Made by a program: the position numbers and the translations under genes. A DNA stretch of 64,000 nt, from positions 1 through 64,000 of IMG/VR virus record IMGVR_UViG_3300025695_000006; one strand, written 5' to 3'. Position 1 is the first letter of the stretch. The number at the start of each line of letters is the position of its first letter. This DNA is from a virus. Of this stretch, positions 48,445 to 63,450 are shown one piece after another. The notes beneath the pieces are model-generated. The model was given only the letters and a program-made list of their open reading frames with translations. It made no database searches and was not told where the DNA came from.

Positions 48445-49033
48445 TGAAGAAAAAGCGAATAAATTAGCTCAAGGTATAGCTAACGCAAGAAAAGTAATGC
48501 AGAAAGTAGAAGGTGGTATCTCTAATAGCAACCAAAACACAAATAATGGTATTAGCACATCATACCCACCACAACCTAACTATAATGAAAGGGAACCAGA
48601 GTACATATCTGAGGCTGAAATGAAAGCAAGGGTAGCGTCTAAGAACACTGGACCTAAAAAGACTATGAAAAACCTAGAGTCATCTAAAATGCCTAAAGAA
48701 ATATTAGAATCTTTCTTAAACAACCCTATTAACGACCCAACAGTACCAGTTGGTTTAGACAACGTTGTAAGTAAGGTTAACGAGACTCAAAACAGTTACA
48801 ATAACGTATATCAATCAACAGGACCCGAAATAACTAAAGAGGTTGTAGTAGAATCTAAAGCTCCAGTTATGGACACTAATTTGATAGAATATATCATAAA
48901 AAAAACTGTTGAAGAAACGATAGACAAGATGAGTAAAAATACGTCTATTGATGAGACTATACAAATAAAAATAGGTGAAAAGACTTTTGGTGGTAAATTA
49001 ATGTCATTAAAAGAGAATAATAAAAATAAATAA
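48437..49033 (+). CDS. Hypothetical protein
   Basis: ORF track. Confidence 0.6.
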   Translation: MNSEEKANKLAQGIANARKVMQKVEGGISNSNQNTNNGISTSYPPQPNYNEREPEYISEAEMKARVASKNTGPKKTMKNLESSKMPKEILESFLNNPINDPTVPVGLDNVVSKVNETQNSYNNVYQSTGPEITKEVVVESKAPVMDTNLIEYIIKKTVEETIDKMSKNTSIDETIQIKIGEKTFGGKLMSLKENNKNK

Positions 49034-49046
49034 ATAAATAAAAATT

Positions 49047-49226
49047 ATGAACAAAGAACAATTAATGGGAATTATTAGACACGTACTAACATTTGTTGGT
49101 GGTATTGTTGTCGCAAAAGGGTTTGCTGACGAAGCTCTTGTATTAGAATTAATCGGTGGTGGTACAACACTAATAGGTGGTATATGGTCAATCTTAGATA
49201 AAATCAAGGATACTAAAAAAGTATGA
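49047..49226 (+). CDS. Putative holin (Pam3-gp28-like, two hydrophobic helices)
   Basis: Not in ORF track (59 aa): MNKEQLMGIIRHVLTFVGGIVVAKGFADEALVLELIGGGTTLIGGIWSILDKIKDTKKV. Confidence 0.75.
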   Translation: MNKEQLMGIIRHVLTFVGGIVVAKGFADEALVLELIGGGTTLIGGIWSILDKIKDTKKV

Positions 49227-49227
49227 T

Positions 49228-49419
49228 ATGTCTGTAATAAAATTTTGTAAAAACAAATGTTGTCCAGTAATAGAGGTGAAAGAATCCACGATAGTACTTG
49301 GCGATAAAGAAGGTCCAGAAGGTATAACCACATGGACTAAATCACAGTTTTCTGATTTTGTTGAGGCGGCCAAGTCGGGTAAGTTCGACGATATAACCAC
49401 CAACAAACAAGAAAGTTAA
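49228..49419 (+). CDS. Small DUF397-like protein
   Basis: CCPVIEV...VLGD...W...FSDFVEAAKSGKFD resembles the DUF397 pattern CVEV..RD..W..F...K.GEF. Confidence 0.5.
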   Translation: MSVIKFCKNKCCPVIEVKESTIVLGDKEGPEGITTWTKSQFSDFVEAAKSGKFDDITTNKQES

Positions 49420-49425
49420 AAACTC

Positions 49426-49463
49426 AAAAACCCAATTAAATGCAATATATTAATTGGGTTTTT
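49426..49463 (+). terminator. Intrinsic terminator / inverted repeat
   Basis: AAAAACCCAATTAA...TTAATTGGGTTTTT. Confidence 0.65.
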
Positions 49464-49499
49464 AATTAAATTCACTATATTGCAATAAATCTACTAACT

Positions 49500-50270
49500 A
49501 TGAAACAAATAATCTTAAGCCTGTTAATCACAACAGCACTATTCGCTTGTCGAAAAACATCACCAATGGAAGAATCAGAAAACACATTGGAAGTAACAGA
49601 AGCAAACATGGCTGTTATCGGAAAGAGAACTGCAACTTGGTGCGGGCCTTGTGGAAGTTGGGGGTTTCCTCAATTTGAAACATTGAAAGAAACTTACAAA
49701 GGAAAAGCCCTATTTATGGCTTGGAAAGACGCCTTTACAACTACCGAAGGTTCAACTTTGTTTGATGAAGTAGGACCAACTTTTAACTTAGGGGGTTCAG
49801 TACCAACATTTTTTTACAATTTTATTCCAAACGCTGATGATTCAGTGATTACGAAGCACGTTGAATCTGATTACGTTGTTGCTAGCGCTAATTACGACAT
49901 GGAAGTATCAGGTCAAAATGTGTTGTTAAAAACCACAACAAAGTTTTTTGCTAATGTGGAAGGTGTGTACTATATAGCCCCATACATGATAGTTGACAAC
50001 ATCGTTGGTTACCAAAATGGGCATGTTGACGGGAACAACACAGTTCATCACAACTATGTTGCTAGAGTCGCAAAACCAACAACGGTTAGTTCAGTAGAAA
50101 ACTTTGGGTACCAATTAACAACAAATGGTGCTGAAAGAGGCCACACAATTAACCTAGACTTTACAGTAAAAAAAGATGTTTCCTGGAAAACAAAAGATAT
50201 TTCTTTCGGATTAGTGATCTACAAACAAGAACCTTGGGGGTTACAATTTGTCAACGCATTCACTAAATAA
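49500..50270 (+). CDS. Lipoprotein with thioredoxin-like CxxC and Omp28-like domain
   Basis: Signal peptide II with lipobox LFAC; TATWCGPCGSWG; YQNG...HHNYVAR Omp28-like segment. Confidence 0.7.
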   Translation: MKQIILSLLITTALFACRKTSPMEESENTLEVTEANMAVIGKRTATWCGPCGSWGFPQFETLKETYKGKALFMAWKDAFTTTEGSTLFDEVGPTFNLGGSVPTFFYNFIPNADDSVITKHVESDYVVASANYDMEVSGQNVLLKTTTKFFANVEGVYYIAPYMIVDNIVGYQNGHVDGNNTVHHNYVARVAKPTTVSSVENFGYQLTTNGAERGHTINLDFTVKKDVSWKTKDISFGLVIYKQEPWGLQFVNAFTK

Positions 50271-50300
50271 CTTTAATTAATAAAGGTAAATTTTTATTAT

Positions 50301-51047
50301 ATGAATAAGATTAGAATTCTAGTTATAGGTGAGAGTTGCACTGACGAGTTTATTTATTGTAAATCGGATAGATTATCACCAGAAGCCCCAGTACCAGTTT
50401 TAAACCCAATAAAAACTGTTAAAAATAGAGGTATGTCTGGTAACACAACAACAAATTTAAAGTCTATATTACCAAACTCTCAGATTACTTCAGTGATACA
50501 AACTGAAAATATAACTAAAACACGTTATATCGAGAATAAATCTAACCATATGTTCTTAAGGGTAGATAAAGGTGAGGACAGTTTAACACCTATAGAATGG
50601 ACTAACGATATCATAGAATCTATAAAACAGGCTGATATAGTCGTTGTAAGTGATTACAACAAAGGTTTTTTAAAGGATTCTGATGTAAAAAGAATAGGAG
50701 AGTTAAGTGAGTTATCTATATTAGATTCTAAGCGTAAATTAAATAATGATATTATAAATAGTTATACGTTTATAAAATTGAATGAATCAGAATATGGTAA
50801 CAATAAACATTTAACACATAACGGTATTATAGTAACACTAGGATCTAAAGGTGCTAGACATGGTAGTAAATTATACCCATCACTAAACCCTCAAGAAACC
50901 ATAGACGTAAGCGGTGCTGGTGATACTTTTACCGCTTCATTCATAACTACCTACTATATAACCTCAGATATTTCAGAAGCTATAATAAAAGCTAATGAAA
51001 ACGCTTCCAACGTCGTAAGTAGAAGAGGGGTAGTAACACCCAAATAA
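50301..51047 (+). CDS. PfkB-family sugar kinase, RfaE/HldE domain I-like (heptose-7-phosphate kinase-like)
   Basis: ILVIGESCTDEF...RLSPEAPVPV, VVVSDYNKG, VTLGSKGA, DVSGAGDTF. Confidence 0.8.
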   Translation: MNKIRILVIGESCTDEFIYCKSDRLSPEAPVPVLNPIKTVKNRGMSGNTTTNLKSILPNSQITSVIQTENITKTRYIENKSNHMFLRVDKGEDSLTPIEWTNDIIESIKQADIVVVSDYNKGFLKDSDVKRIGELSELSILDSKRKLNNDIINSYTFIKLNESEYGNNKHLTHNGIIVTLGSKGARHGSKLYPSLNPQETIDVSGAGDTFTASFITTYYITSDISEAIIKANENASNVVSRRGVVTPK

Positions 51048-51109
51048 ATAAACAGATTTACTTTAATTTATGCATTAAATTTACTATTATTACACAAATA
51101 ATAAATTTA

Positions 51110-52333
51110 ATGAGTAAGATAAACATACTAGTTAACCCTAATGATAGGTCTGGATCTGGTAAATACAGGTGTATAGACCCACACGTAACCCTACAAAATA
51201 ACCACAGTGAAGAATATTTTGTAGAGATAAACCAAAATATAGATTTTAACGACACTAACTACCTAAAAAAGTTTAATATATTCTTTTTTAATAGGGTACC
51301 TGGGGGTAATTACCAACAAGCCGAAGAGATTTTCGCTAAGATAAAATCTTTAGGTGGTAAAATAGTTCTTGATTTAGATGACTACTGGAGATTGGATAAA
51401 TCTCACGGTATGTATTTACAGGCTAAAGAAGGTGGATACAGTAGAACTATTATCAATCTAGTTAAAAGTGCTGATATGGTAACTGTTACAACAGAAATAC
51501 TAAGAGATGAAGTATTTAAGTACAACAAAAACTGTTTCGTATTACCAAACGCGATTAACCCAAAAGAACAACAATTTACACCAAAACCTACAGAATCTGA
51601 TAGATTAAGGTTCGGTTGGCTTGGCGGGTCTTCCCATATTAAAGATATCGAATTAATTAAAGATATAGCTCAGACCACAGCAAAACGAAAAGATGAAATA
51701 CAATTTGTTTTATGCGGTTTCGATAAAAGAGGTAAGGTTAAAATGTTCAACCCAGAAACTAAAAAGTGGATGGAAAGAGATATGCAACCACTAGAAACTA
51801 CATGGTTCATGTATGAGGTGTTTATAACTAACAATTTTAGATTATTAGAGGGTGATACCGAGTATCTAAGTCATCTAATGAAGTTTGACCCAGAAGTTAA
51901 ATTTGATGACTTAAACAAACCATACAGAAGGATATGGACAAAAAATATTAATAACTATGCTACAGGTTATAACGAGTTCGATGTAGCATTAGCACCTTTG
52001 TTAGATAACGAATTTAATAAATACAAGTCTCAGTTAAAAGTTATTGAGGCTGGTTTCCACAAAAAACCTATCATTGCACAAAACTACGGTCCGTATACAA
52101 TAGATTTAATATCAGCGGTAAACAAAGGTGGTACTATTAACAGTGATGGTAACTCTTTATTAGTGGAAACTAGTAAAAACCATAAACAATGGGGTAAACA
52201 CGTTAAAATGTTAATGGATAACCCAAATATGGTAACGGACTTAGGTGAAAAGTTATACGAAACAGTTAAAGATCGTTACGATATAAATAACGTAACAAAA
52301 TATAGAGACGAATTATACAAATCATTAGTTTAG
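51110..52333 (+). CDS. Glycosyltransferase, GT-B fold
   Basis: LDLDDYW, ADMVTVTT, VLPNAI, GWLGGSSH, DVALAPL...FNKYKSQLKVIEAG. Confidence 0.8.
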   Translation: MSKINILVNPNDRSGSGKYRCIDPHVTLQNNHSEEYFVEINQNIDFNDTNYLKKFNIFFFNRVPGGNYQQAEEIFAKIKSLGGKIVLDLDDYWRLDKSHGMYLQAKEGGYSRTIINLVKSADMVTVTTEILRDEVFKYNKNCFVLPNAINPKEQQFTPKPTESDRLRFGWLGGSSHIKDIELIKDIAQTTAKRKDEIQFVLCGFDKRGKVKMFNPETKKWMERDMQPLETTWFMYEVFITNNFRLLEGDTEYLSHLMKFDPEVKFDDLNKPYRRIWTKNINNYATGYNEFDVALAPLLDNEFNKYKSQLKVIEAGFHKKPIIAQNYGPYTIDLISAVNKGGTINSDGNSLLVETSKNHKQWGKHVKMLMDNPNMVTDLGEKLYETVKDRYDINNVTKYRDELYKSLV

Positions 52334-52334
52334 A

Positions 52335-52919
52335 ATGGAAAATCATTTAGATAATATAAACATAAACGAACTTCTTAGTGAGGATGTTAAGAAAGACTTA
52401 GAAAGTGTGTTAGGTCAAACACAAGATTTAATGGGTGACTGGGATTACGACCAAGAAACCATGAGTATAAAATTAAAAGTATCATTTATAAATAAATCTG
52501 ACAACCCTGACCCATCATACGAAAAACACGGCGACAGTGGTTTTGATATTAGAGCCAATATAGATGAACCGATCGAACTAAAACCAGGTAATAGAACATT
52601 AATAAAAACTGGTTTATATTTTCAGATACCGTTAGGTTATGAATTACAGGTTAGGTCTAGAAGTGGTTTAGCCCTTAAAAACGGTGTGATGGTATTAAAT
52701 AGTCCTGGTACAGTAGACTCTGGTTACAGAGGCGAAGTAGGGGTTATACTTTATAATACAGATAATTCAGAATCATTTGCCGTAAATAATGGTGATAGAA
52801 TAGCCCAAGGAGTTATAGCCGCCGTACAAACAATGGATAGGACTAAACTTATAAAAAAAGATAAACTATCTTCATCAGAAAGAGGTGAAGGCGGGTTTGG
52901 TTCAACAGGAGTTAAATAA
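52335..52919 (+). CDS. dut: dUTPase (trimeric)
   Basis: SGFDIRA, RSRSGLA, GTVDSGYRGE, GDRIAQ, RGEGGFGSTG. Confidence 0.95.
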   Translation: MENHLDNININELLSEDVKKDLESVLGQTQDLMGDWDYDQETMSIKLKVSFINKSDNPDPSYEKHGDSGFDIRANIDEPIELKPGNRTLIKTGLYFQIPLGYELQVRSRSGLALKNGVMVLNSPGTVDSGYRGEVGVILYNTDNSESFAVNNGDRIAQGVIAAVQTMDRTKLIKKDKLSSSERGEGGFGSTGVK

Positions 52920-52923
52920 TGTT

Positions 52924-53226
52924 ATGGAAGAATTTAAAGAACAAATAAAGGCTTACAAAACTATCACACCAGATGTACTAGATAGAGTCGAGTACAAAAC
53001 AGTTTGGTCTGGTAAAAGGATAGAGGTCGGAGATAAAGTATTGTACGCATTTGTTTATCCACCAGGATCGGACGAGTATAAGTTAGCCACTTTCCTCCAA
53101 AGAGAGCTAAATGAGGTTAGTTTAAAATTTAGTTTCATACAGATGTTTAATGGGATCATACCTGTATTAAAATTTAAAGACGATGATACGGTACGAGAAT
53201 TAATAGAAGAAAAAGATGAAGACTAA
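52924..53226 (+). CDS. Hypothetical protein
   Basis: ORF track 52885..53226; ATG at 52924 after the dut stop is the more plausible start. Confidence 0.55.
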   Translation: MEEFKEQIKAYKTITPDVLDRVEYKTVWSGKRIEVGDKVLYAFVYPPGSDEYKLATFLQRELNEVSLKFSFIQMFNGIIPVLKFKDDDTVRELIEEKDED

Positions 53227-54655
53227 CATTAAGATCAGTGTCGTTTTCTCAACCAGAGCTATAGACGATTCATTTGTTGAACACGTAAAAAAAACATGTC
53301 TACATAAAGGTGTTGAAGTATTACCGTACCTAAATAACGGAGAATACTCATTAACTGAAATATACAACAAAGGGTTAAAAGAAGCGTCTAGTGATATAGT
53401 GGTTTTTTGTCATGATGATATAATTTTTGAAACAAAAAATTGGGGTAATAAGTTAATAAAACATTTTGATAAAAATGAAGAATATTCCATACTAGGTGTT
53501 GCTGGCACGAATCACATGATCAGTGGTATGTGGTGGGAGATAAGGAACGCTATGCACGGAACCGTTAAACACACCGACGGTAATAAAGTATGGGAGAATA
53601 AATTCTCTAAAAGTTACGGTAATGAACTAAAAGAGATGGTTGTTCTGGATGGTTTATTTTTAGCGGTAGATAGGACTAGGTTAATAAGTAAATTCGATGA
53701 ATCGTATAAAGGGTTCCATTTCTATGACATATCATTTTGTTTTGATAATCATATAAATGGGGCTAAAATAGGTTTAATGTCTAATATTAAATTGATACAT
53801 AAATCGGTTGGTGGTACTAACAAACAATGGGAGGAGAATAAATTAATCTTTGAGACCAGAAATTCTAAAAACATACCAATAAACCTAAATAAAAACACCT
53901 CACATATAGTATTCGATAAATCATTACCAAAAGTAGACTTACACGTACTATGTTGGAACGAAGAAAAGATAATCCCTTCATTTTTAAAACACTACGAAAA
54001 CTGGGTTGATAGAATCATAGTTTACGATAACAAATCTAATGACAATAGTGTTAAGATATTAACTGAACACCCTAAAGTAACTATCATTAGTTACGATACT
54101 GGTGGTGAAATACGCGACGATGCCTACCTACAGATAAAAAATAATTTATGGAAAAATTCGATAGGTAGAGCGGACATTGTAATAGTTTGTGATATGGACG
54201 AGTTTCTATATACCGAAAACATAGGAACTTTAATACGAAACTTTAACGATAGTAGTGCTACTATAATAAAACCAGTGGGTTATGATATGATAATAGAGGA
54301 TTTCGACATCACTAAAAGTGTTGATTTATTAAGTGACGTTAAATACGGTATAAGACACAATCATTTTGACAAACTATGTATGTTCAAGCCAAGTGAGATA
54401 AAGGAGATTAATTATAATTTCGGCTGTCATGTCGCTAACCCCTCTGGTAATGTAAAGTATTTCGATGGTGATGTTAAACTATTACATTATAAAAAAATAG
54501 GGTTAAAATACTTTCTAGATAAAATGGGTAGTTACCATAAAAGGTTAAGTAAGTTTAACAGGGATAGATCCCTGGGTTACCAATACGATTTCGATAGAGA
54601 GAAACATATCACAGACTTCACTAAAGATTCTCATAAAAGTAAAAAAGTTATATGA
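53216..54655 (+). CDS. Two-domain GT-A (GT2-like) glycosyltransferase
   Basis: Domain 1: YNKGL..ASSDIVVFCHDD...LDGLFLA...FHFYDI; domain 2: CWNEEKII..FLKHY...YDNKSND...VCDMDEFL. Confidence 0.8.
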   Translation: MKTNIKISVVFSTRAIDDSFVEHVKKTCLHKGVEVLPYLNNGEYSLTEIYNKGLKEASSDIVVFCHDDIIFETKNWGNKLIKHFDKNEEYSILGVAGTNHMISGMWWEIRNAMHGTVKHTDGNKVWENKFSKSYGNELKEMVVLDGLFLAVDRTRLISKFDESYKGFHFYDISFCFDNHINGAKIGLMSNIKLIHKSVGGTNKQWEENKLIFETRNSKNIPINLNKNTSHIVFDKSLPKVDLHVLCWNEEKIIPSFLKHYENWVDRIIVYDNKSNDNSVKILTEHPKVTIISYDTGGEIRDDAYLQIKNNLWKNSIGRADIVIVCDMDEFLYTENIGTLIRNFNDSSATIIKPVGYDMIIEDFDITKSVDLLSDVKYGIRHNHFDKLCMFKPSEIKEINYNFGCHVANPSGNVKYFDGDVKLLHYKKIGLKYFLDKMGSYHKRLSKFNRDRSLGYQYDFDREKHITDFTKDSHKSKKVI

Positions 54656-55185
54656 AAGAAGTTTTATTGATAGGTAATGGTCCGTCTTGTTTAGATAAAG
54701 AATTGGGTGAACTAATAGACTCTCATGAAACAGTTATTAGGTTCAATGACTTCGAGACAAAAGGTTACGAAAAACACGTTGGTACCAAAACAGACGTATG
54801 GGTCAAGACTAAAATGTCATCTAAACATATAACCAAAAACTTCAAAAGTAAATTCTACGTTTACCCAAACATCATAAGATGTACCGAAGAAGAGAAGAAG
54901 ATTTTAGTTAATGATGGGTTTAATGTGATCCCTGTAAAATTCTACAACAAGGTAAATAAATTGTTAGACGCTGGTAACCTATGGGCCACTACTGGATTAG
55001 TGATGATATACTATTTTATAGAAAAAGGTTATAATGTCAAAATACATGGTTTTGATTTCTTTGAGAATGGAGTTCATTACTATAAAGACGATAATAAAAT
55101 GATAGGTCATAGACCAGACTTAGAAAAGGCTTTGGTCAACAATCTCATTAATAAAGGTGAAGTTAAATTATTATATAATGGATAA
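54652..55185 (+). CDS. GT29-family sialyltransferase-like protein
   Basis: Sialylmotif L: LIGNGPS...LGELIDSHETVIRFN....GYEKHVGTKT; S: ATTGLVMI...VKIHGF; motif III HYY; VS HRPDLE. Confidence 0.8.
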   Translation: MKEVLLIGNGPSCLDKELGELIDSHETVIRFNDFETKGYEKHVGTKTDVWVKTKMSSKHITKNFKSKFYVYPNIIRCTEEEKKILVNDGFNVIPVKFYNKVNKLLDAGNLWATTGLVMIYYFIEKGYNVKIHGFDFFENGVHYYKDDNKMIGHRPDLEKALVNNLINKGEVKLLYNG

Positions 55186-55828
55186 ACTTAAAATATTAAT
55201 ACCAGCCAGAAGAAACTCAAAAGGCTTACCTTTTAAAAATAGGTTACTTTTTAACGAAACAGTTGATAGTATACCTAAAAAATACCACAAATACATAATT
55301 GTATCAACAGATGATGAAGTATTGATCGAAAAATGTGAATTAATGGGTTTAAAAGTTTCTATTAGACCAGATGAGTTAGCCATTGACACAACCAGCACAA
55401 AAGAAGTCATTGAATACCTAGTTAAAAACGGTGATTTAAATTACGACGATGTGGTTATAATGCTATACCTAACTTACCCAGAAAGAACTTTTAAAGAGGT
55501 TAAAAATGTCTATAAATTATTTTTAGATAATAAAGAAAAAAGTTTGTTGTGTAAAAAGGATTTTAAAGGTGTACACCCATATTTATATATGTTAAACGCA
55601 GGTAACAACAAAGGTAGACAGTTAGTTAAACATAATCTATACAGGAGACAAGACTACCCAGAAATATTTGAAATATCTCATTACATATCTATATTTAAGG
55701 TTAGTGAATTAGGTAAACTAAACAATAATTTATATAATGATGATACATATTTCTTTAAAATATACGATGTTATAGACGTTGACACTAAAAAAGATTTTGA
55801 TGGGTTACTTCGCAAAGAAAAAAAATAA
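55178..55828 (+). CDS. neuA: CMP-nonulosonate (acylneuraminate/Kdn) cytidylyltransferase
   Basis: IPARRNSKGLPFKN, VSTDD, RPDELAIDTTST, RRQDYP, IDVDTKKDF; ATG at 55178 preferred to 55157. Confidence 0.8.
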   Translation: MDKLKILIPARRNSKGLPFKNRLLFNETVDSIPKKYHKYIIVSTDDEVLIEKCELMGLKVSIRPDELAIDTTSTKEVIEYLVKNGDLNYDDVVIMLYLTYPERTFKEVKNVYKLFLDNKEKSLLCKKDFKGVHPYLYMLNAGNNKGRQLVKHNLYRRQDYPEIFEISHYISIFKVSELGKLNNNLYNDDTYFFKIYDVIDVDTKKDFDGLLRKEKK

Positions 55829-56783
55829 GGGTAAATCAATAGTTACTAAGAGTAACCAGAAACAAAGAATTAAAATTAATTCTCAGGTCGATGAGGTCTT
55901 AGAAAACGTGGTTGAAATAGTAACAGCTAACAACCCTAAAAAAGGTCTTAAAGTGAATAAAACTAAAAATGTTGACTTAAAGAAAGGGGTTGTAAAAACA
56001 GAACAAAAAAATGTTGACTTAAAGAAAGGGGTTGTAAAAACAGAACAAAAAAATGTTTCTGAACCTACACTCACCACTATTAAAGGAACTAAAACAAAAA
56101 ACAATGATAAGTCTAATCAAGAATTATATGACGAAACCATTGACAGATTATTAAACCAATTTTTAAAAAAACGCTCTTTATTATCTTTAGATAATTTAAA
56201 GAGGATGATAAAAAATAAGACTATAATATTAGTTGCTAACTCATCAGACTTACTTAAAAAAGAAAATGGTGATATTATTGACTCTAATGATATTGTCGTA
56301 AGATTCAACTCATTTAAATTAAACGAAGTATATACTGGGTCTAAAACTACAATACATGTTAGCGTATACCTACAAGACGAAAATCTAGATAAATACGTAC
56401 CTATAAGATTTATCATATCAAATAACCTCACTAACTGGATCAATAAGGTTAAAGGTTTAAACAAGGTTCATCAGGGGTTAATACTTAAGTATAACCACCA
56501 TAATGATCATAATAGTATGAAAACAGACGAACAACCAAGCACTAGCGGGTATACCATGCTAAAGTTATTATTACACCTAGGTGGGTTTAAAAAGATAGAC
56601 CTAATAGGATTTAACTTCTATGACGGTGGTGAAAATAGTTTATTAAGGACAGATAAAGGTTTAGAGTACGAGATATCTAAAGTACATAATTATAAGAAAG
56701 AGAAATTAGAAATAATGAGTATGGCTTTTGAGTATGATAAAAAAAATAATATAATAACTTTTTATGATAGTAACACATACTAA
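55800..56783 (+). CDS. Second GT29-family sialyltransferase-like protein with Lys-rich N-terminal extension
   Basis: L motif LVANSS...GDIIDSNDIVVRFN....YTGSKTT; S motif STSGY...IDLIGFNFY; VS HNYKKE; ATG at 55800 preferred. Confidence 0.75.
   Translation: MGYFAKKKNKGKSIVTKSNQKQRIKINSQVDEVLENVVEIVTANNPKKGLKVNKTKNVDLKKGVVKTEQKNVDLKKGVVKTEQKNVSEPTLTTIKGTKTKNNDKSNQELYDETIDRLLNQFLKKRSLLSLDNLKRMIKNKTIILVANSSDLLKKENGDIIDSNDIVVRFNSFKLNEVYTGSKTTIHVSVYLQDENLDKYVPIRFIISNNLTNWINKVKGLNKVHQGLILKYNHHNDHNSMKTDEQPSTSGYTMLKLLLHLGGFKKIDLIGFNFYDGGENSLLRTDKGLEYEISKVHNYKKEKLEIMSMAFEYDKKNNIITFYDSNTY
55965..56057 (+). repeat. Perfect 42-bp tandem duplication (KNVDLKKGVVKTEQ x2)
   Basis: AAAAATGTTGACTTAAAGAAAGGGGTTGTAAAAACAGAACAA twice plus a partial copy. 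Confidence 0.9.
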
Positions 56784-57615
56784 ACACACCAACATAGCCG
56801 AGGCACCAGAAGCTATAAGTGAGGTTATAAACAAATATACCGAACATAAATCATATGTTGTTGGTTATTCTTACCCAGGTAAATTAATTATACCTAATTC
56901 AGATATAGTACACCAACACAACAAGAAGTTCTATACTACCAAGAAAAGTATTATACAATACCACAGTGAACCTTTTAGAGTTGAATTAAATGTTGATATA
57001 CCAAAACTAGTAATAGCCCAATATCATGCCACCTTACCCGAATATAGACATTGTAGAGTGGTAAGAAACCCAGTAGATTTATTTGATGTTAAATACATCC
57101 CCAAATATCAAAACAAAGTAATTAGAATAGGATATTCACCATCTTCAACAACACCCTCGTCTAAATGGGCTGATAAGGGTTACAAAGAAACTATACCAAT
57201 CCTAAATAAAATAAAAAAAATATATAAAGATAAAGTGGAGATAGAGGTGATTACTGGGGTGCCACTAGAAGAATGTCTCAAAAGAAAATCTGAGTGTAAT
57301 ATATTTATAGATGAAGTTAAGACCGATTCGTATCACAGATCAGGCCTCGAATCAATGGCCATGGGTATAACAACCATATGTTCTGTTAGTAAGGAAGTAG
57401 AAGAAGTTTTACTAAGGTCGTCAAACGCTAAAACAAACCCTTTTATTAACACGTATCACCAAAACTTAGAAATAGAATTAATTAATTTAATAGAATCTGG
57501 TTTAAATAAAATAATTGATAAAGGTTACGAAAGTAGATTATGGATGGAGAACCATTGGGACCCAGAAACTATCGCAAATGAATACATTAAAATATACGAA
57601 AAATGGCTAGATTAA
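56764..57615 (+). CDS. Glycosyltransferase, GT-B-like
   Basis: IRIGYSPS...KG...CNIFIDEV...YHRSGLESMAMG...SRLWMENHWD. Confidence 0.65.
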   Translation: MIVTHTKHTNIAEAPEAISEVINKYTEHKSYVVGYSYPGKLIIPNSDIVHQHNKKFYTTKKSIIQYHSEPFRVELNVDIPKLVIAQYHATLPEYRHCRVVRNPVDLFDVKYIPKYQNKVIRIGYSPSSTTPSSKWADKGYKETIPILNKIKKIYKDKVEIEVITGVPLEECLKRKSECNIFIDEVKTDSYHRSGLESMAMGITTICSVSKEVEEVLLRSSNAKTNPFINTYHQNLEIELINLIESGLNKIIDKGYESRLWMENHWDPETIANEYIKIYEKWLD

Positions 57616-58238
57616 ACATGGAAACAATGAAAGATGTACTAAATGAAAATTTGGATATATCAAAAATAAAATTAATTTATGACGTAGGGTGTTTAAACGG
57701 AGTTGACAGCTTCCTTCTATCAGAATTATTTGACGCTAAAGTTATAGGGTTCGAAGGTTTACCCAACAATTACAAAAAATTCCTACTAGGTAAAGATACC
57801 GAAAAAGTTAGTTTTGAAAATTTCGTAATAAGAGATTACGATGGGGTAACACATTTTTACGAAAAAGAACAAAATGGTATACATAGTATTTTTGAACAAA
57901 ATTTATCAAAAACTAAAGAACGGTTAGTTGAGTTAAAATGTAAAAGGATGGACACGTACATAACAGAAAAATCCTTAGATATACCCGACCTCGTTAAAAT
58001 AGATGTTGAAGGAGCTACATTAGAAGCCTTAAAAAGTTTTGGTGGTATTTTAGAGGATATAAAAATACTACAAATTGAAACTGAGGAGGTTGAATATTTC
58101 ACAGGACAAACTTTAGAACCTAAAGTTATGGAATACCTTTACAGTAAAGGATTTTTTCCTATATTTAAATCAACAGCAATTAACGTCAAACAGAATGACT
58201 ATATTATGTTAAATAAAAAATATTATAAACAAAAGTAA
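57603..58238 (+). CDS. FkbM-family SAM-dependent methyltransferase
   Basis: IYDVGCLNG, VIGFEG, RMD..I, DLVKIDVEGA. Confidence 0.85.
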   Translation: MARLNMETMKDVLNENLDISKIKLIYDVGCLNGVDSFLLSELFDAKVIGFEGLPNNYKKFLLGKDTEKVSFENFVIRDYDGVTHFYEKEQNGIHSIFEQNLSKTKERLVELKCKRMDTYITEKSLDIPDLVKIDVEGATLEALKSFGGILEDIKILQIETEEVEYFTGQTLEPKVMEYLYSKGFFPIFKSTAINVKQNDYIMLNKKYYKQK

Positions 58239-58241
58239 ATT

Positions 58242-59081
58242 ATGAATAGTAAGACAAAGATTATAGGTGAAATAGGTATCAACCATAACGGGGATATAGC
58301 TATAGCAAAACAATTAATATTAGTAGCTAAAGCTGCTGGTTGTGATTATGTTAAGTTTCAAAAAAGAAACCCAGACATATGTGTTCCAGAGGAACAGAAA
58401 GGTAAGATGAGACAAACTCCTTGGGGTGAGATAACTTACTTAGAATATAAATGGAAAACTGAGTTCGGTGAAGCTGAGTACGATGAAATAGATAGGTTTT
58501 GTAAAGAGATTGGTATTAACTGGTTCGCATCCGTTTGGGATAAAACATCTGTAGATTTTATGATGAAGTACGAAAGTGACCTAGGAGTAGCTATGAAAAT
58601 ACCATCGGCGTTGATAACCGATATTGAATTATGTGAGTATGCTAGAGAAAAGGCCGATTACTTAATGATATCAACAGGTATGAGTAATGAAGATGAGGTT
58701 ACTTTATGTATAGATGCGTGTAACCCAGACGTTATAATGCACACAAACTCAACATATCCATGTCCAGTAAACGAATTAAATTTAAATTACATAACATGGT
58801 TAAAAAACCACTACGCTGAAAAAGAAATAGGTTATAGCGGACATGAGTACGGGCTAGTAACCACTTTCGCTGCTATACCAATGGGCGTAAAATGGGTAGA
58901 ACGCCACATAACACTAGACAGGGGTATGTGGGGATCCGATCATTCAGCTTCAATTGAACCATCTGGTTTATTTAAATTAGTTAAAGGTATTAGAGATATA
59001 GAAGAATCATTATCAATACCAGAAGGTCCTAGAGAATTATTTGGTGGTGAACTATCTAAAATGAAGAGTTTAAGGAAATAA
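58242..59081 (+). CDS. neuB: NeuB-family nonulosonic acid (sialic acid/Kdn) synthase, short form without the C-terminal AFP-like domain
   Basis: EIGINHNG, VKFQKR, ISTGMS, HTNSTYP, GYSGHE, VERHITLD, GSDHSAS. Confidence 0.92.
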   Translation: MNSKTKIIGEIGINHNGDIAIAKQLILVAKAAGCDYVKFQKRNPDICVPEEQKGKMRQTPWGEITYLEYKWKTEFGEAEYDEIDRFCKEIGINWFASVWDKTSVDFMMKYESDLGVAMKIPSALITDIELCEYAREKADYLMISTGMSNEDEVTLCIDACNPDVIMHTNSTYPCPVNELNLNYITWLKNHYAEKEIGYSGHEYGLVTTFAAIPMGVKWVERHITLDRGMWGSDHSASIEPSGLFKLVKGIRDIEESLSIPEGPRELFGGELSKMKSLRK

Positions 59082-59092
59082 AATTAATTTAT

Positions 59093-59383
59093 ATGTTAAT
59101 ATATGTTGATATAGATAATACTATATTTAAAACAGGGAGTACCGACTATACAACCAGTACCCCAATGATGGACAGAATCAAAAAGATAAATAAATTATAC
59201 GACGAAGGGAACACTATTGTTTATTGGACGGCAAGGGGTTCCGTAACAGGTATAGATCATTCGGAACTAACCAAGAAGCAATTTAAGGAATGGGGAGTCA
59301 AACACCATGAATTGAAATTCGGCAAACCTCCTTACGATATTTTTATCGACGATAAGAATATAAACAGTGAAGATTACTTTTAA
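59093..59383 (+). CDS. Capless (C0) HAD phosphatase
   Basis: VDIDNT, YWTARG, GKP, FIDDK. Confidence 0.8.
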   Translation: MLIYVDIDNTIFKTGSTDYTTSTPMMDRIKKINKLYDEGNTIVYWTARGSVTGIDHSELTKKQFKEWGVKHHELKFGKPPYDIFIDDKNINSEDYF

Positions 59384-59397
59384 TACAAAACATACAT

Positions 59398-60135
59398 ATG
59401 GCTAGAAAAGCTAGAAAAAAATTATCATACGAAGAACAGCAGGATATCCTAGAATCAATGAGTAATGATCATCAAGGGAACGATTTTTTAAAAAGAATTA
59501 AGGTTGATATAAAGTGTAAAACGGTTAACCAGAAAAAACTAGTTAAAGAAATAAAGGATAAAGAGATGGTTATATGCTCTGGATTACCAGGTACAGGTAA
59601 AACTTACTTGTCCTGTGCAGTCGCACTAGATTTAATAAAAAATGATGGCAGATATCGAAAAATAGTTATAGTTAAGTCGGTTACAACATTAAAAGATGAA
59701 GAGATAGGCTTTTTAAAAGGTACTATGAAAGAAAAGATGGAACCTTTTATGTACTCTTTTATGCATAACTTCGAAAAGATAGTCGGTAAATATAATACTC
59801 AAACCCTTAGAGAAGCGGGTATGATAGAAGAAATGCCTATAGCGTACATGAGGGGTATAAATATAGATAACTCCATAGTAATCATAGACGAGGCTCAAAA
59901 TATCTCTATAGATAACATAAGAACCATAATGACAAGATTGGGTGAGAACTCTAAAATGATATTTTTAGGTGATGAGAATCAAGTAGACATGAAGAGAAAG
60001 GGTCAGAGTTCCTTACACTTTATAATCGAAAAGTTTTCTGATTTTGAAGAGGTGGGTACTGTCGTACTTACTGACAGTGACGTAGTCAGAAACCCGTTGA
60101 TTAAAAAAATAGAACAAATATTTAGAGAAAAATAG
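59398..60135 (+). CDS. phoH: PhoH-family ATPase
   Basis: GLPGTGKT, IGFLKG, AYMRG, IIDEAQN, TRLGENSK, GDENQ.D, VVRNPLI. Confidence 0.92.
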   Translation: MARKARKKLSYEEQQDILESMSNDHQGNDFLKRIKVDIKCKTVNQKKLVKEIKDKEMVICSGLPGTGKTYLSCAVALDLIKNDGRYRKIVIVKSVTTLKDEEIGFLKGTMKEKMEPFMYSFMHNFEKIVGKYNTQTLREAGMIEEMPIAYMRGINIDNSIVIIDEAQNISIDNIRTIMTRLGENSKMIFLGDENQVDMKRKGQSSLHFIIEKFSDFEEVGTVVLTDSDVVRNPLIKKIEQIFREK

Positions 60136-60188
60136 ATGTAGACTTTATTTTATACCAATTATCTACTAATTTTAATAAAAAATAGAAC

Positions 60189-60827
60189 ATGATAATTGGT
60201 ATAACAATAAACAATATTTTACGTGACCACGTATCAAAATTGAAAGACCTTTACGAATTTGAGTTTGAGAAAGAGGTAGAGGGTCCTATAAACCCATTTA
60301 AGTTATCAGAACATTTCCCTGATATTGATCCTGTTATTGAATCACCAGAATTTAAGGATGATGGTAAAGAGATTGAATTCCCTGAAAACGCTAAAGATAA
60401 CGGGTTTAATTTAGATAAATTCATGTATGACGAAGCTTCTTTTGAAATATTCGGCAGAACTGATGAAACGGAACAAGGTATCATTAAAAATATATCAGAT
60501 TTCTCCAATAAAAACAGGATCAAAATAGTATTACTTAATAACGAAAGTCAGAGGTCAAAAGCGGCGACGCTTTTCTTCCTAAGTAAGAATTATTACAATC
60601 TAGAACAAGTTATTTTCCCTAAAAAATGGAAAGACTTCTGGACGCACTGTGACGTAATCGTTACAGACAATCCCAAGCTACTAAAATCTAAACCAAAAGG
60701 TAAAATATCGATAAAACATATAAACGATTTTAATATTGACATTAAATCCGATTATGCTATAATTAACACAAAGGAATTATTTAAACTCCTAAGAAAATTA
60801 AAAAAAGAAAATAATGGAAAAAGGTAA
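60189..60827 (+). CDS. HAD/5'(3')-nucleotidase-like protein with degenerate catalytic motif
   Basis: IIGITINNILRD in place of DxDGVL; ATLFFLSK, DVIVTDNP, FN fold motifs. Confidence 0.5.
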   Translation: MIIGITINNILRDHVSKLKDLYEFEFEKEVEGPINPFKLSEHFPDIDPVIESPEFKDDGKEIEFPENAKDNGFNLDKFMYDEASFEIFGRTDETEQGIIKNISDFSNKNRIKIVLLNNESQRSKAATLFFLSKNYYNLEQVIFPKKWKDFWTHCDVIVTDNPKLLKSKPKGKISIKHINDFNIDIKSDYAIINTKELFKLLRKLKKENNGKR

Positions 60828-61893
60828 AGAATTGGTTAGTAACCTAGAATCTGCTATAGCTAAGATTCAAAATAAAGAACATAAAATAATATTTATGGTA
60901 CCAGACACTAAAGGTAACGGTAAATCAAGTGTTATTCACCTGTACGACCAAGCATTAGCTTTAAAAAACGCTGGGTATAATGTAGCAATGTTACACGAAA
61001 AAAACGACTTTATAAAAGTGGGTAGTTGGTTATCAACAGAATGTGACGAGATAGAACACATGTCTATTGAAGATAATAACTTAGTTGTAGGTCCTTCAGA
61101 CTTTATAGTAGTACCAGAAGTGTACGGAAGCGTTTTTGAGCAGATAGTTAACATGCCTATGGAGAAAATAATCTATGTACAATCTTACGATTATATGTTA
61201 GAGGCATTCTCACCTGGTAAATCTTGGCTTGATTCTGGTGCCGAAGAATGTATAACAACATCAAACACTCTCAAGGATATGATTGAAGGTACTGTACCAG
61301 TAAAAGACGTACAATTCATAGAACCTAAAATAGGTGGTAGCTTCAAACCTAGCGAAAAACCACAAAAACCTATTATTGCGATACATTGTCGTGAAGCCAG
61401 AAAAGCAGCTAAATTGATAAAGGCTTTTTACATGAAATATCCTATCTATAGATTCGTTTCATTTAAAGATATGCACACAATGAATCACGACGATTTCGCT
61501 TCAAACTTAAAAGAATGTGCTGTATCAGTCTGGATAGACGATGACTCGTCATTCGGTAGATTCCCAGTAGAATCAATCAAATCTAACGTACCCGTTATAG
61601 GTAAAGTACCTAATATTATCCCAGAATGGATGACTGACGATAACGGTGTATGGATGTACGATGAGAACCAAATACCTGAAATATTATCTAGTTTTATAAA
61701 AAATTGGTTAGACGACACGCTACCTGATAACTTAACTAATGTTAAGGAAACTATTAAGGACAGGTACTCGGAAGATAATTTCGAAAAAAATACTGTAGAG
61801 GTATTTGAACACTTATTCGATAAGAAAGTGAGTAAATTAGAAAAAATAAAAGAGAATATTAAAGAAACATTACAAGAAGATGAGCAAAAGTAA
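60814..61893 (+). CDS. Glycosyltransferase, GT-B-like
   Basis: DFIVVPE, IYVQ, SSFGRFPVESIKSNVPVIG. Confidence 0.65.
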   Translation: MEKGKELVSNLESAIAKIQNKEHKIIFMVPDTKGNGKSSVIHLYDQALALKNAGYNVAMLHEKNDFIKVGSWLSTECDEIEHMSIEDNNLVVGPSDFIVVPEVYGSVFEQIVNMPMEKIIYVQSYDYMLEAFSPGKSWLDSGAEECITTSNTLKDMIEGTVPVKDVQFIEPKIGGSFKPSEKPQKPIIAIHCREARKAAKLIKAFYMKYPIYRFVSFKDMHTMNHDDFASNLKECAVSVWIDDDSSFGRFPVESIKSNVPVIGKVPNIIPEWMTDDNGVWMYDENQIPEILSSFIKNWLDDTLPDNLTNVKETIKDRYSEDNFEKNTVEVFEHLFDKKVSKLEKIKENIKETLQEDEQK

Positions 61894-62713
61894 TTTAACA
61901 ATTATAGTACCAGTACATTCAGTAGAAGATGCGGGTAAACATAAGTTTGATGATATGTTCGATATAGCACTATCATCCATTAACATAAATGAAACTAAAC
62001 CAGAAAAGGTACTAGTAGTCATATGTGATTGTTCCGATGTCAAAGAAAAGGTAGAATCAGTAGATTTTGGTAAATACGATGGACTAGACATAGAAGTTAT
62101 AGTTAACACTGGTGAAACTGATTACCAAAGTCAGATAAACTTCGCTGCTAAAGAGGTTAACACTGAATTTATGAGTGTCCTAGAGTTTGATGATGAATTA
62201 TCTAAAACTTGGTTTAAAAACGTTAACGACCACATAGAGTCTTACCCTGAAGTAGATTTATTCTTACCCATCGTAAATGATGTTGACCAAGAAGGTAATT
62301 TCATTGGGTTATCGAACGAAGCTGTATGGGCGTACAACTTTACTGAAACAGTTGGTAATATTGATCTAGAAGTACTACTTGAATACCCTAACATCAGTTT
62401 ATGTGGTATGGTTATAAAAACTGAAGTGTTTAATAATATAGGTGGTTTAAAACAAATTAAACTAACATTTAATTATGAATTCCTATTAAGATTCCATAGT
62501 AATGGTCATAAATCAATGGTCATCCCTAAGATAGCTTACAAACACGTAAACATGAGAGATAACTCTTTATTCTGGTTGTACAAAAATAGTGAAGCCTTAG
62601 AATATAAGATCGAACCAAATGAGGGTTTATTCTGGATGGAAACTGCTAAGAAAGAGTATTTGTTTAATGATGATAGAAATATAAAATATGAGGATGTAGA
62701 AACAGTTGATTAA
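61880..62713 (+). CDS. Glycosyltransferase, GT2-like
   Basis: LTIIVPVH, QINFAA..VNTEFMSVLEFDD, FN.IGGLK, YEFLLR. Confidence 0.75.
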   Translation: MSKSNLTIIVPVHSVEDAGKHKFDDMFDIALSSININETKPEKVLVVICDCSDVKEKVESVDFGKYDGLDIEVIVNTGETDYQSQINFAAKEVNTEFMSVLEFDDELSKTWFKNVNDHIESYPEVDLFLPIVNDVDQEGNFIGLSNEAVWAYNFTETVGNIDLEVLLEYPNISLCGMVIKTEVFNNIGGLKQIKLTFNYEFLLRFHSNGHKSMVIPKIAYKHVNMRDNSLFWLYKNSEALEYKIEPNEGLFWMETAKKEYLFNDDRNIKYEDVETVD

Positions 62714-63426
62714 TGGGTAGGAAGAAAAAAAATAAAACCTACTATGGTCCAGAGCAAGAAGAAGCTGTTGTTAGGTTTTTAGAAGCTGAGTCTGACTACG
62801 AACGCCAAAAAATCTATAGGGAAGAATTAAGAGCCCCTATAGATAAGTTAATAGAAAACATAATAAGAACGTATAGACTTTACAGACCATCTTATGAGTT
62901 CGAAGATCTACATTCTGATACATTATCGTTTCTAATAACTAAATTCGACAAATTCAAACCAGAAAAAGGTAAAAAATCGTACTCGTATTTCGGTACTATA
63001 TGTAAAAATTATCTCTTTGGTGAAATGGTCAAGGAGCACAAAAGGAATACATCATTAGTAGATATTGATAAAAGTCAGAGTGATGTATTAAAAAGAGATG
63101 GGTACACTTACTATATAGACACTGAAGATATAGACTTTACACTTTTCTTAGAAAATTTAGCTATAAGTGTTAGAGAAGATTTGAAGAATGATAACCTATC
63201 CGACAATGAGTTTAAGGTTGGTTACGCACTAGCCAAAATATTAGAAGAGTGGAGGGAATTATTCTCAGATGTAAGCGATGGTAAAAATTCAACTAAATTC
63301 AACAAAAACTTAATTCTACTTTACATAAGAAATATGACAGGTTTAAACACTAAAGAAATAAGGAATAGTATGAAAAGGTTTAAATCATTATATAAAATGT
63401 TTAAGAACGATTATCTAGATGACTGA
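62713..63426 (+). CDS. Phage late-transcription sigma factor (T4 gp55-like)
   Basis: KLIENII..Y......EDL....L...KFDKFKPEKGKKSYSYFGTICKNYL resembles gp55 region 2. Confidence 0.65.
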   Translation: MGRKKKNKTYYGPEQEEAVVRFLEAESDYERQKIYREELRAPIDKLIENIIRTYRLYRPSYEFEDLHSDTLSFLITKFDKFKPEKGKKSYSYFGTICKNYLFGEMVKEHKRNTSLVDIDKSQSDVLKRDGYTYYIDTEDIDFTLFLENLAISVREDLKNDNLSDNEFKVGYALAKILEEWRELFSDVSDGKNSTKFNKNLILLYIRNMTGLNTKEIRNSMKRFKSLYKMFKNDYLDD

Positions 63427-63434
63427 TATTTATT
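63427..63434 (+). promoter_or_regulatory. Putative late promoter variant TATTTATT
   Basis: 16 nt upstream of the 63451 start. Confidence 0.4.
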
Positions 63435-63450
63435 ATAAAATAATATTATT

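Follow-up and report, generated by a model that had tools for sequence, protein, structure and literature searches.

A predicted operon for nonulosonate synthesis and transfer, with GT29-family proteins, in an uncultured marine jumbo phage

Sugars of the sialic acid family, the nonulosonates, cap animal cell surfaces and serve bacteria in mimicry and as motility factors, and the GT29 transferases that handle such sugars are generally treated as essentially eukaryotic. What might a phage do with both? This question is raised by an operon at positions 53216-59383 of the window, i.e. the whole 64-kb stretch of DNA analyzed here, which comprises the first 64 kb of an 80,330-bp virus record (IMG/VR IMGVR_UViG_3300025695_000006). 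In this operon, two GT29-like genes stand together with genes for a NeuB-family nonulosonate synthase, a small phosphatase of the haloacid dehalogenase (HAD) superfamily and a cytidine monophosphate (CMP)-sugar synthetase. Judging from sequence families, motifs, predicted folds and gene order, we consider it fairly probable that the island to which this operon belongs makes, activates and attaches a nonulosonate, by means of soluble GT29 proteins, on a glycan built in the cytoplasm.

The record has a CheckV completeness of ~27%, implying a genome of ~300 kb, and its source is an uncultured marine jumbo phage. The G+C content of the window is 30-36%, no cultured phage is close to its family B polymerase (the best match, at ~25% identity, is to Salinibacter phages), and no tRNA gene was found in the 64 kb. 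The operon stretch is present in marine metagenomes of several studies. The same operon was also seen on a 186,834-bp contig.

Operon structure and the synthesis genes

The original prediction had placed at these coordinates a tightly coupled operon coding for a double GT2 glycosyltransferase, a GT29, a CMP-synthetase, a second GT29, a GT-B glycosyltransferase, an FkbM methyltransferase, NeuB and a HAD phosphatase. We recovered the same eight-gene content, with open reading frame (ORF) boundaries that agree exactly (Table 1). All eight genes lie on the + strand and either overlap by 4-20 nt or lie 3-11 nt apart, an arrangement which bears out the tight coupling. Accordingly spaced, the gene for the double GT2 overlaps that for the first GT29 protein (GT29a) by 4 nt; the CMP-synthetase ORF comes next, with a probable ATG start at 55178, and is followed by the ORF of the second GT29-like protein (GT29b), for which the gene call on the record is shorter (313 aa) and has a later start. 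The GT-B ORF overlaps the latter by 20 nt and is itself overlapped by the FkbM ORF by 13 nt, and the NeuB and HAD ORFs follow after gaps of 3 and 11 nt. No terminator-like site was found on the + strand at 49000-63600, and no membrane segment in any protein of the operon.

The synthase gene codes for a short NeuB whose family match extends no further than profile position 259 of 329; the C-terminal SAF/antifreeze-like domain is thus absent and only the TIM barrel is present. Over the full length of this barrel, the protein aligns with SpsE (1vli), PseI (8h2c) and a short 290-aa NeuB (6ncs), with conservation of the blocks GEIGINH, KFQ, KIPS, GYSGHE, ERHIT and DHS. By these alignments, it is a NeuB-family (PF03102) synthase with a predicted intact catalytic barrel. 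Its scores against the more specific models are 189.9 bits for TIGR03569 (NeuB/NnaB; cut-off 399.65) and 136.4 bits for TIGR03586 (PseI; cut-off 340.25), and because it stays below both equivalog cut-offs, its substrate cannot be read from family membership.

The cytidylyltransferase matched, among solved structures, the CMP-N-acetylneuraminic acid (CMP-Neu5Ac) synthetase of Neisseria meningitidis (1eyr, 3.6e-14), 6ifd (4e-11) and PpNeuA (9t4z, 0.003). It is closest to the CMP-Neu5Ac synthetases of N. meningitidis and Vibrio cholerae and more distantly related to the CMP-ketodeoxynononic acid (CMP-Kdn) synthetase of Prymnesium parvum. Its NCBIfam match, to PseF (TIGR03584; 5e-14, 52.5 bits), is below the cut-off of 205.7. 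As judged from these matches, the protein is predicted to be a CMP-nonulosonate synthetase of the CTP_transf_3 family.

The 96-aa protein encoded downstream of NeuB carries in its translation all four HAD motifs (D6xD8xT10, T46, K78 and D86D87) and no cap. It matched the capsule biosynthesis phosphatase family TIGR01689 (3.1e-06) and the BT0820 family (0.0049), and in the Protein Data Bank 9iqw (1.7e-9) and 1xpj (0.0016), the latter a neighbour that it shares with gp81 of phage DLP3. Neither the family nor the PDB profile searches returned a KdsC/YrbI-type match. Among cultured phages, tblastn detected homologues in RB69 (ORF051c, 33% identity, 3e-7), S-SM2 (53%) and P-SSM2 (PSSM2_311). The original prediction had likened this protein to the cap-less (C0) HAD phosphatase of the Bacteroides thetaiotaomicron Kdn route; the cap-less build stands, whereas the family turned out to be that of AfhF and RB69 gp51, not that of KdsC and BT1713. 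AfhF of phage HY126 is a Mg-dependent sugar phosphatase, and RB69 gp51 and DLP3 gp81 have been assigned by homology with it to the step of the uridine diphosphate (UDP)-arabinofuranose pathway in which arabinofuranose-1,5-bisphosphate becomes the 1-phosphate (PMC13326640, 2026). Removal of a 9-phosphate from a nonulosonate would be the same kind of reaction as the removal of a terminal primary phosphate by AfhF. The family is therefore best described as one of general sugar phosphatases that act on terminal phosphates in the sugar-nucleotide pathways of phages, and for the window protein we propose nonulosonate-9-phosphate as a putative substrate.

The three genes recur together well beyond the window. 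A NeuB-seeded scan of IMG/VR showed that at least 110 stretches encode a relative; 80 loci were fetched and their neighbouring ORFs clustered, giving 74 distinct NeuB loci, 69 of which were assessed; counts over all loci with a NeuB match are out of 81. Of the 69 assessed loci, 56 have a HAD gene no more than 6 kb from NeuB and 56 a CMP-synthetase gene at such a distance, and the trio as a whole recurs in 56. Over all loci with a NeuB match, HAD is found in 70 of 81 and within ~30 nt of NeuB in ~36 of 81. The common order is synthetase, NeuB, HAD, a few bases apart across differing neighbourhoods and contiguous in many loci. This distribution among related phages strengthens the earlier proposed sequence of synthase, phosphatase, CMP-activation and transfer, and because the trio is conserved, we argue for a phosphorylated intermediate. 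In a complete relative of the window (IMGVR_UViG_3300042350_004528, hereafter G001; 298,833 bp, CheckV 100%), NeuB and HAD are likewise adjacent. A pattern-based scan of bacterial contigs yielded at least 18 loci with a NeuB relative (≤59% identity), and HAD is in none of those listed.

The remaining product of the operon for which a family could not be read from Pfam, the 283-aa protein, has a predicted AlphaFold2 (AF2) structure of high confidence (predicted local distance difference test, pLDDT, 94.5). Foldseek retrieved with it PimA (2gej, 2.1e-9), followed by BshA, MshA and PglA, so the predicted model, with its GT-B/GT4 fold, upholds the GT-B label given to this ORF earlier. A profile search against the PDB gave PglA (0.044), and its 174 homologues are all unnamed.

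Two minimal GT29-family proteins

Both GT29 assignments held when examined with the PF00777 model, which GT29a and GT29b match above the cut-off (Table 1), and the sialylmotif pattern is as the original prediction had it: L, S, III and VS in GT29a; L, S and VS, without the HYY of motif III, in GT29b. In GT29a, motifs L, S, III (HYY) and VS (H153xxxxE158) are invariant or nearly so in 56 homologues; G8, N32, G133 and E158 show no variation, H153 occurs in at least 90%, and the consensus of these 56 short members reads LIGNGPS..ID..VVRFN, PSTG..GFD, HYY and HxPxxE. Sequence searches against the PDB with phmmer returned ST3Gal-I, ST6Gal1 and ST6GalNAc2, the alignment with pig ST3Gal-I spanning motifs L and S. 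An AF2 model of GT29a, built on the 56-sequence alignment, reached a pLDDT of 93.2. In a Foldseek search of the PDB with this model, animal GT29 enzymes took all of ranks 1-27 (E down to 3e-9, template modeling score to query 0.62-0.76), in the order ST6GalNAc2, ST8SiaIII, ST3Gal-I and ST6Gal1, with the GT42 enzyme CstII following from rank 28 and Cst-I also later. The model thus predicts a sialyltransferase fold of the GT-A variant 2 type, to which the solved GT29 enzymes are nearest.

In GT29b, 21 homologues show no variation in motifs L, S and VS (H303xxxxE308), including residues N154, S155, D168, R175-N177, G277, F278, H303 and E308, and the protein groups with GT29a by BLAST. Its residues 1-115 form a lysine-rich, low-complexity extension (28 K+R versus 11 D+E) that includes a perfect 42-nt tandem repeat at 55965-56057, with 2.2 copies of 14 aa per unit. 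Exactly one unit fewer was seen in a contig of another marine metagenome (run X3), and other variants of the repeat site in a ~95%-identical relative (run X4).

Neither protein has a Golgi-type anchor or stem (maximum 19-residue hydropathy 1.06), and the disulfide cysteines that Golgi enzymes carry between motifs L and S are absent from both. It is well supported by these comparisons that GT29a and GT29b are true members of the GT29 sequence family, in the form of apparently soluble minimal cores. The term 'eukaryote-type' that had been applied to them is borne out in part: animal GT29 folds are indeed the nearest, while anchor and cysteines are missing and bacterial GT29-like proteins have already been published for marine proteobacteria, in a study that does not mention phages (PMC5811610, Petit et al. 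2018). With the animal Golgi and bacterial GT29 enzymes, the phage proteins share PF00777, sialylmotifs L/S/III/VS with the catalytic histidine and, by the model of GT29a, the GT-A variant 2 fold. Unlike the animal enzymes, with their catalytic domain of ~270 aa, GT29a is a 177-aa core and both phage proteins are unanchored, stemless and, by prediction, cytoplasmic; GT29b further differs from known GT29 proteins in having no motif III and a lysine-rich, repeat-containing N-terminus. CstII and Cst-I of Campylobacter (GT42) and the Maf/DUF115 flagellin nonulosonate transferases are comparable in being soluble, of the same fold class and users of cytoplasmic CMP-nonulosonate donors. Unlike GT42, the phage sequences match PF00777, CstII being the next-best structural match after GT29.

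An exhaustive search with GT29a returned 2458 cluster representatives at E ≤0.001, the best of them mostly 170-200 aa long and some fused to other domains, which places the phage GT29 proteins, as far as sequence similarity tells, in a large prokaryote/virus branch. As for their donor, both GT29 ORFs overlap that of the CMP-synthetase, one on each side. Because both genes are interleaved with the CMP-synthetase gene, the phage-made sugar is the likely donor for the window GT29s, and GT29a and GT29b likely transfer from a CMP-activated nonulosonate.

The sugar, its acceptor and the alternatives

In the pathway that we propose, the short NeuB would condense phosphoenolpyruvate with a host hexose 6-phosphate, most likely mannose-6-phosphate, to give Kdn-9-phosphate; the adjacent HAD protein would strip the terminal phosphate and the cytidylyltransferase would convert the product to the CMP-sugar. 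The two anchor-less GT29s would then transfer the sugar, with inversion, onto a glycan that the GT2, the GT4-like and other neighbouring transferases would assemble in the cytoplasm, and the FkbM enzyme would methylate the product. The acceptor would be cytoplasmically accessible; the candidates are virion proteins of the phage itself and glycolipid precursors of the host envelope. Bacterial lipooligosaccharide sialyltransferases are also soluble or peripheral, with their site of action on the inner side of the membrane.

Mannose-6-phosphate is a central metabolite, and because it would be the simplest host-supplied substrate, Kdn is our leading candidate for the sugar, with a chance that we put, in absolute terms, somewhat below even. 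No Epimerase_2, DegT or NAD-dependent epimerase/dehydratase gene is present in the whole 80,330-bp record, so that the earlier statement that the window has no NeuC epimerase or Pse/Leg (pseudaminic/legionaminic acid) precursor genes holds for the entire record. The 154-kb closest relative likewise has no Epimerase_2, DegT or PF01370 epimerase/dehydratase gene. The system had been called complete, and its genes do cover synthesis, dephosphorylation, activation and transfer; the hexose-phosphate precursor must come from the host. A Kdn route is plausible, the case for it resting on missing precursor genes in a 27% fragment and on the logic of the phosphatase. The Kdn route as established for B. 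thetaiotaomicron and P. parvum runs through a synthase, a phosphatase and a CMP-synthetase in turn, and the animal Neu5Ac route likewise passes through a phosphorylated intermediate (PMC6200933). The phage operon resembles BT1713-1715 and the P. parvum CMP-Kdn route in having these three genes adjacent, without epimerase or amino-sugar genes (PMC6200933). It differs in its phosphatase, a 96-aa TIGR01689/AfhF-type HAD instead of the KdsC/YrbI type of the BT route, in a synthase that is SAF-less and below every equivalog cut-off, and in being virus-encoded, in one operon with its transferases.

Within the lineage of the window (loci L004-L023 and L028), which has flanking genes in common (dUTPase at one end, PhoH plus a sigma-like gene at the opposite end), the core trio does not vary and the transferase slot is occupied by GT29a, GT29b, a DUF115/MptE-like protein or a GT8 enzyme. 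The FkbM methyltransferase was found in the window and its closest relative (L004) only; in several relatives, the slot immediately upstream of NeuB is filled by an enzyme of the Methyltransf_24/TylF type that is unrelated to FkbM. Swapped transferases and methyltransferases in fixed slots are as expected of a surface glycan under diversifying selection, and a fixed donor pathway combined with swappable transferases and tailoring enzymes looks, by analogy, like O-antigen-like surface glycan loci. Over all NeuB loci, GT29-like genes are found with NeuB in 23 and DUF115/MptE-like proteins in 15. In the relatives, the DUF115 assignment is below the Pfam cut-off (22.8 versus 34.6 bits); a profile comparison of this family with GT29a gave a probability of 3.9%, with a suggestive resemblance just around the S motif, and a profile search of the family against the PDB gave no match.

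The alternatives to the Kdn pathway draw on a number of observations that weigh against it. The same logic might serve another sugar, i.e. Neu5Ac-9-phosphate from N-acetylmannosamine (ManNAc)-6-phosphate, or a Leg/Pse-type diamino or other nonulosonate, with precursors from the host or from genes in the unsequenced 73% of the genome. NeuB lies far below both equivalog cut-offs and fits the NeuB/NnaB model better than PseI, the best solved match of the CMP-synthetase is a CMP-Neu5Ac synthetase and, with only ~27% of the genome in hand, the absence of precursor genes holds for the 80-kb record alone. Distant viral loci, with a NeuB 60-69% identical to that of the window, often have a dehydratase (31 loci), a DegT aminotransferase (24 loci) or Epimerase_2 nearby, a DegT-like gene is part of the G001-type operon, and amino-substituted products are possible in the wider NeuB family. 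That neither the 80-kb record nor the 154-kb closest relative contains a precursor gene speaks against such a sugar in the window, as does the retention of HAD although Leg/Pse routes need no phosphatase. Of nine Epimerase_2 genes in the vicinity of viral NeuB, moreover, five co-occur with a UDP-sugar dehydrogenase, pairs that resemble WecB/WecC and probably make UDP-ManNAcA as a separate sugar. ManNAc-6-phosphate is, to our knowledge, not a general bacterial metabolite. We regard another nonulosonate as a possible, if unlikely, product. More radically, HAD could belong with the HldE-like kinase of the island to a separate nucleoside diphosphate (NDP)-heptose or NDP-pentose pathway, and NeuB would then use an unphosphorylated sugar. 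HAD is not of the KdsC type used by the known Kdn route, and it has homologues in 388 cultured phage records, compared with NeuB matches in 3 records of the same collection. In those phages it adjoins kinases and nucleotidyltransferases, and homologues act in the UDP-arabinofuranose pathway of RB69, DLP3 and HY126. The window kinase is 38% identical (8e-48) to the P-SSM2 carbohydrate kinase PSSM2_310, which abuts the P-SSM2 HAD, itself lying between this kinase and two nucleotidyltransferases; S-SM2 has two HAD copies in a NeuB-free island. Since the HAD tree nests cyanophage, kinase-linked HADs among the NeuB-linked ones with no separation, the substrate of HAD is not assignable from its sequence alone. 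What leads us to assign the window HAD to NeuB is its position 11 nt after NeuB and 8 kb from the kinase, the recurrence of the NeuB-HAD adjacency in unrelated neighbourhoods, the presence of the kinase in 3 of 81 NeuB loci (all three closest relatives) versus HAD in 70, and the adjacent NeuB and HAD of G001, which has no kinase. The 80-kb record, moreover, has no PF01467 nucleotidyltransferase to finish a heptose-type pathway, and we consider a separate pathway of this kind improbable. The islands described in PMC13326640 for RB69 (gp51-55), DLP3 (gp81-83) and HY126 (Afh), and those of the cyanophages P-SSM2 (PSSM2_309-313) and S-SM2 resemble that of the window in their homologous small HAD, in the clustering of several soluble glycosyltransferases in T4-like or jumbo genomes and, for P-SSM2, in the PfkB kinase; unlike it, they lack NeuB and GT29, and their products are NDP-pentose or heptose-type sugars.

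Two further alternatives concern the transfer step. The GT29s might use host CMP-3-deoxy-D-manno-octulosonic acid (CMP-Kdo) or another host CMP-sugar, with a different transferase handling the phage sugar. Every Gram-negative host can supply CMP-Kdo, and Kdo-type donors are presumed for the GT29-like proteins of plants. In a separate IMG/VR scan, seeded with GT29 motifs from a 9-sequence alignment, 61 of the 66 loci have no NeuB, CMP-synthetase or HAD within 8 kb, and outside the lineage of the window just one has NeuB within that distance; because of these 61 loci, the GT29-like family is not strictly dependent on a phage-made nonulosonate, and its NeuB-free viral members must use a host donor, possibly CMP-Kdo. 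Relatives of the window also carry the DUF115/MptE-like protein in the same transferase slot. For the window itself, the overlap of both GT29 genes with the CMP-synthetase gene argues for the phage-made donor, as do the 23 NeuB loci with GT29-like genes and the huge phage LR756508, with four GT29-like ORFs around NeuB, and use of a host donor by the window GT29s appears quite improbable. The operon might, alternatively, hypermodify phage DNA, placing an acidic sugar in a short glycan on a hydroxylated or hydroxymethylated pyrimidine. Clusters known from metaviromes put Kdo and heptose on 5-hydroxymethylcytosine and, like the window, combine viral GT-A and GT-B transferases, HAD and a cytidylyltransferase (bioRxiv 10.1101/2023.12.21.572611). 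RB69 and DLP3, which use GT4-like GT-B transferases and a HAD of the same family, place arabinose on 5-hydroxycytosine (PMC13326640). The operon, moreover, lies between a dUTPase/dCTP-deaminase-like gene and PhoH, and the N-terminal extension of GT29b is strongly basic. What defines the metavirome clusters, however, is a variant thymidylate synthase or else a C5-methyltransferase combined with 5mYOX; neither alternative was found here or in G001, and the island of the window, unlike those of RB69 and DLP3 whose product goes onto DNA, contains no enzyme for a corresponding base modification. By the criteria of PMC13326640, the thymidylate synthase of G001 is an ordinary ThyA, with canonical QRSVD and PFN and neither the D169N of 5-hydroxy-dCMP synthase nor the N177D of dCMP hydroxymethylase; the 80-kb record has no thymidylate synthase homologue (PF00303), and C5-cytosine methyltransferase (PF00145) is absent from five related records (G000-G004). 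A search with the Tet_JBP family gave no match, and its control was equally silent. DNA, which had been listed among the possible targets, is thus disfavoured by the canonical ThyA and the missing C5-methyltransferases, and we hold it to be very improbable.

Returning to the proposed nonulosonate pathway, its most far-reaching form, in which large marine phages cap their own virion glycans with an O-methylated Kdn-type sugar derived from host mannose-6-phosphate via minimal GT29s, is in our view rather unlikely. If true, a bacteriophage particle would for the first time be seen to carry glycosylation of the sialic acid family, and the large phage/prokaryote pool of GT29 genes would bear on the origin of eukaryotic sialyltransferases. 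More generally, a phage with a synthase, phosphatase, activating enzyme and two minimal GT29s of its own, recurring in many relatives, would imply that the building of acidic glycans with nine-carbon sugars is routine for phages in the course of infection. The GT29 family tree would gain a large and unstudied branch of prokaryotes and viruses, and 177-aa soluble GT29 cores could serve as compact enzymes for glycoengineering. The target (virion, host envelope or, less likely, DNA) would decide the biology, among particle shielding or adhesion, exclusion of competing phages and evasion of restriction, of a module that recurs in many uncultured marine and aquatic phages. The component families, the pathway logic and bacterial GT29 proteins are already known. 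In the open-access full-text literature we found no paper on phage-encoded NeuB/GT29 modules, and what appears to be undescribed is the viral combination: an AfhF-type phosphatase replaces KdsC, the GT29 proteins include soluble cores of 177 aa, and the module is widespread among uncultured phages.

The wider island and related genes elsewhere

The eight genes are the core of a glycan-building island of ~12 kb, wider than the originally predicted operon, whose predicted genes are collected in Table 1.

Table 1. Predicted genes of the glycan-building island, in window coordinates
Predicted product	Position	Strand	Evidence and remarks
PfkB-family sugar kinase, HldE/RfaE domain I-like	50301..51047	+	TIGR02198 1.7e-31, below cut-off; outside the operon as first predicted, same sugar island
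Glycosyltransferase, probably GT-B	51110..52333	+	phrog_7162 1.1e-49; weak PF13692; kept in syntenic relatives
Two-domain GT2, 479 aa	53216..54655	+	PF13712, residues 43-211, 2.6e-25; PF13704, residues 248-335, 4.4e-17
GT29a, minimal soluble sialyltransferase-like protein, 177 aa	54652..55185	+	PF00777 1.8e-17, 64.1 bits (cut-off 23)
CMP-nonulosonate synthetase, NeuA/PseF-like	55157..55828	+	PF02348 27.4 bits (cut-off 22.6)
GT29b, second GT29-like transferase	55779..56783	+	PF00777 5.1e-06, 26.5 bits (cut-off 23); catalytic domain ~residues 120-334
GT-B fold, GT4-like, 283 aa	56764..57615	+	AF2 model, Foldseek; no Pfam family
FkbM-family methyltransferase	57603..58238	+	TIGR01444 57.2 bits (cut-off 37.7); PF05050 2.1e-10
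Short NeuB-family synthase, 279 aa	58242..59081	+	PF03102 9.7e-60, 202.4 bits (cut-off 22.1)
Cap-less HAD sugar-phosphate phosphatase, 96 aa	59093..59383	+	four HAD motifs; phrog_1238 8.7e-26; no Pfam family
Candidate GT-B (Glycos_transf_1-like/GT1-like) glycosyltransferase, lead only	60814..61893	+	no Pfam family; language-model look-alikes 0.98-0.99, including PF00534 clusters
Further GT2, downstream end of the island	61880..62713	+	PF00535 25 bits (cut-off 23.3); kept in syntenic relatives

The candidate transferase that precedes the last GT2 is conserved in syntenic relatives. The ORF at 60189-60827, between PhoH and the last GT2, has no Pfam family, and its look-alikes suggest, as a lead only, an NT5C-like nucleotidase. 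With no PF01467 partner in the 80-kb record, the own pathway of the kinase at the upstream end looks incomplete. As to expression, two marine metatranscriptome runs of different studies include contigs that agree exactly with the window over NeuB, the dUTPase gene and the synthetase gene at its 3' end; the runs cover parts of the stretch only, as assembled contigs from libraries that may contain DNA, and they give a weak hint of expression.

In G001, the DegT-like aminotransferase gene mentioned above lies at 105847-106470 (L010/L103/L104), between the GT4-like and methyltransferase genes of the operon; it has an in-frame TAA and may be split or decaying. Two genes for NAD-dependent sugar epimerases/dehydratases are located at 281447-282987 of the same genome (L178/L179), ~180 kb from the nonulosonate operon, which suggests a second sugar island in this lineage.

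NeuB relatives also occur on contigs labelled as giant-virus metagenome-assembled genomes (GVMAG; L032, L045, L051, L064, L072, L074, L081 and L083), which encode a short NeuB of 60-68% identity. The four GT29-like ORFs of the 484-kb uncultured huge phage LR756508.1 (L003), of 210-249 aa, lie at 10025-14846 around a NeuB that is 51% identical to that of the window, with a HAD homologue 3.9 kb downstream. About 60 smaller marine phage contigs (L114-L175) carry a NeuB-free GT29-like gene, usually beside or fused to a class I methyltransferase, in surroundings with ribonucleotide reductase, radical SAM/SPASM and JmjC genes. Among cultured phages, a hypothetical protein at 116969-117496 of the T4-like Stenotrophomonas phage DLP6 (L109, H6) is weakly GT29a-like (25% identity, E 4e-4); DNA glycosylation is known from the related phage DLP3.

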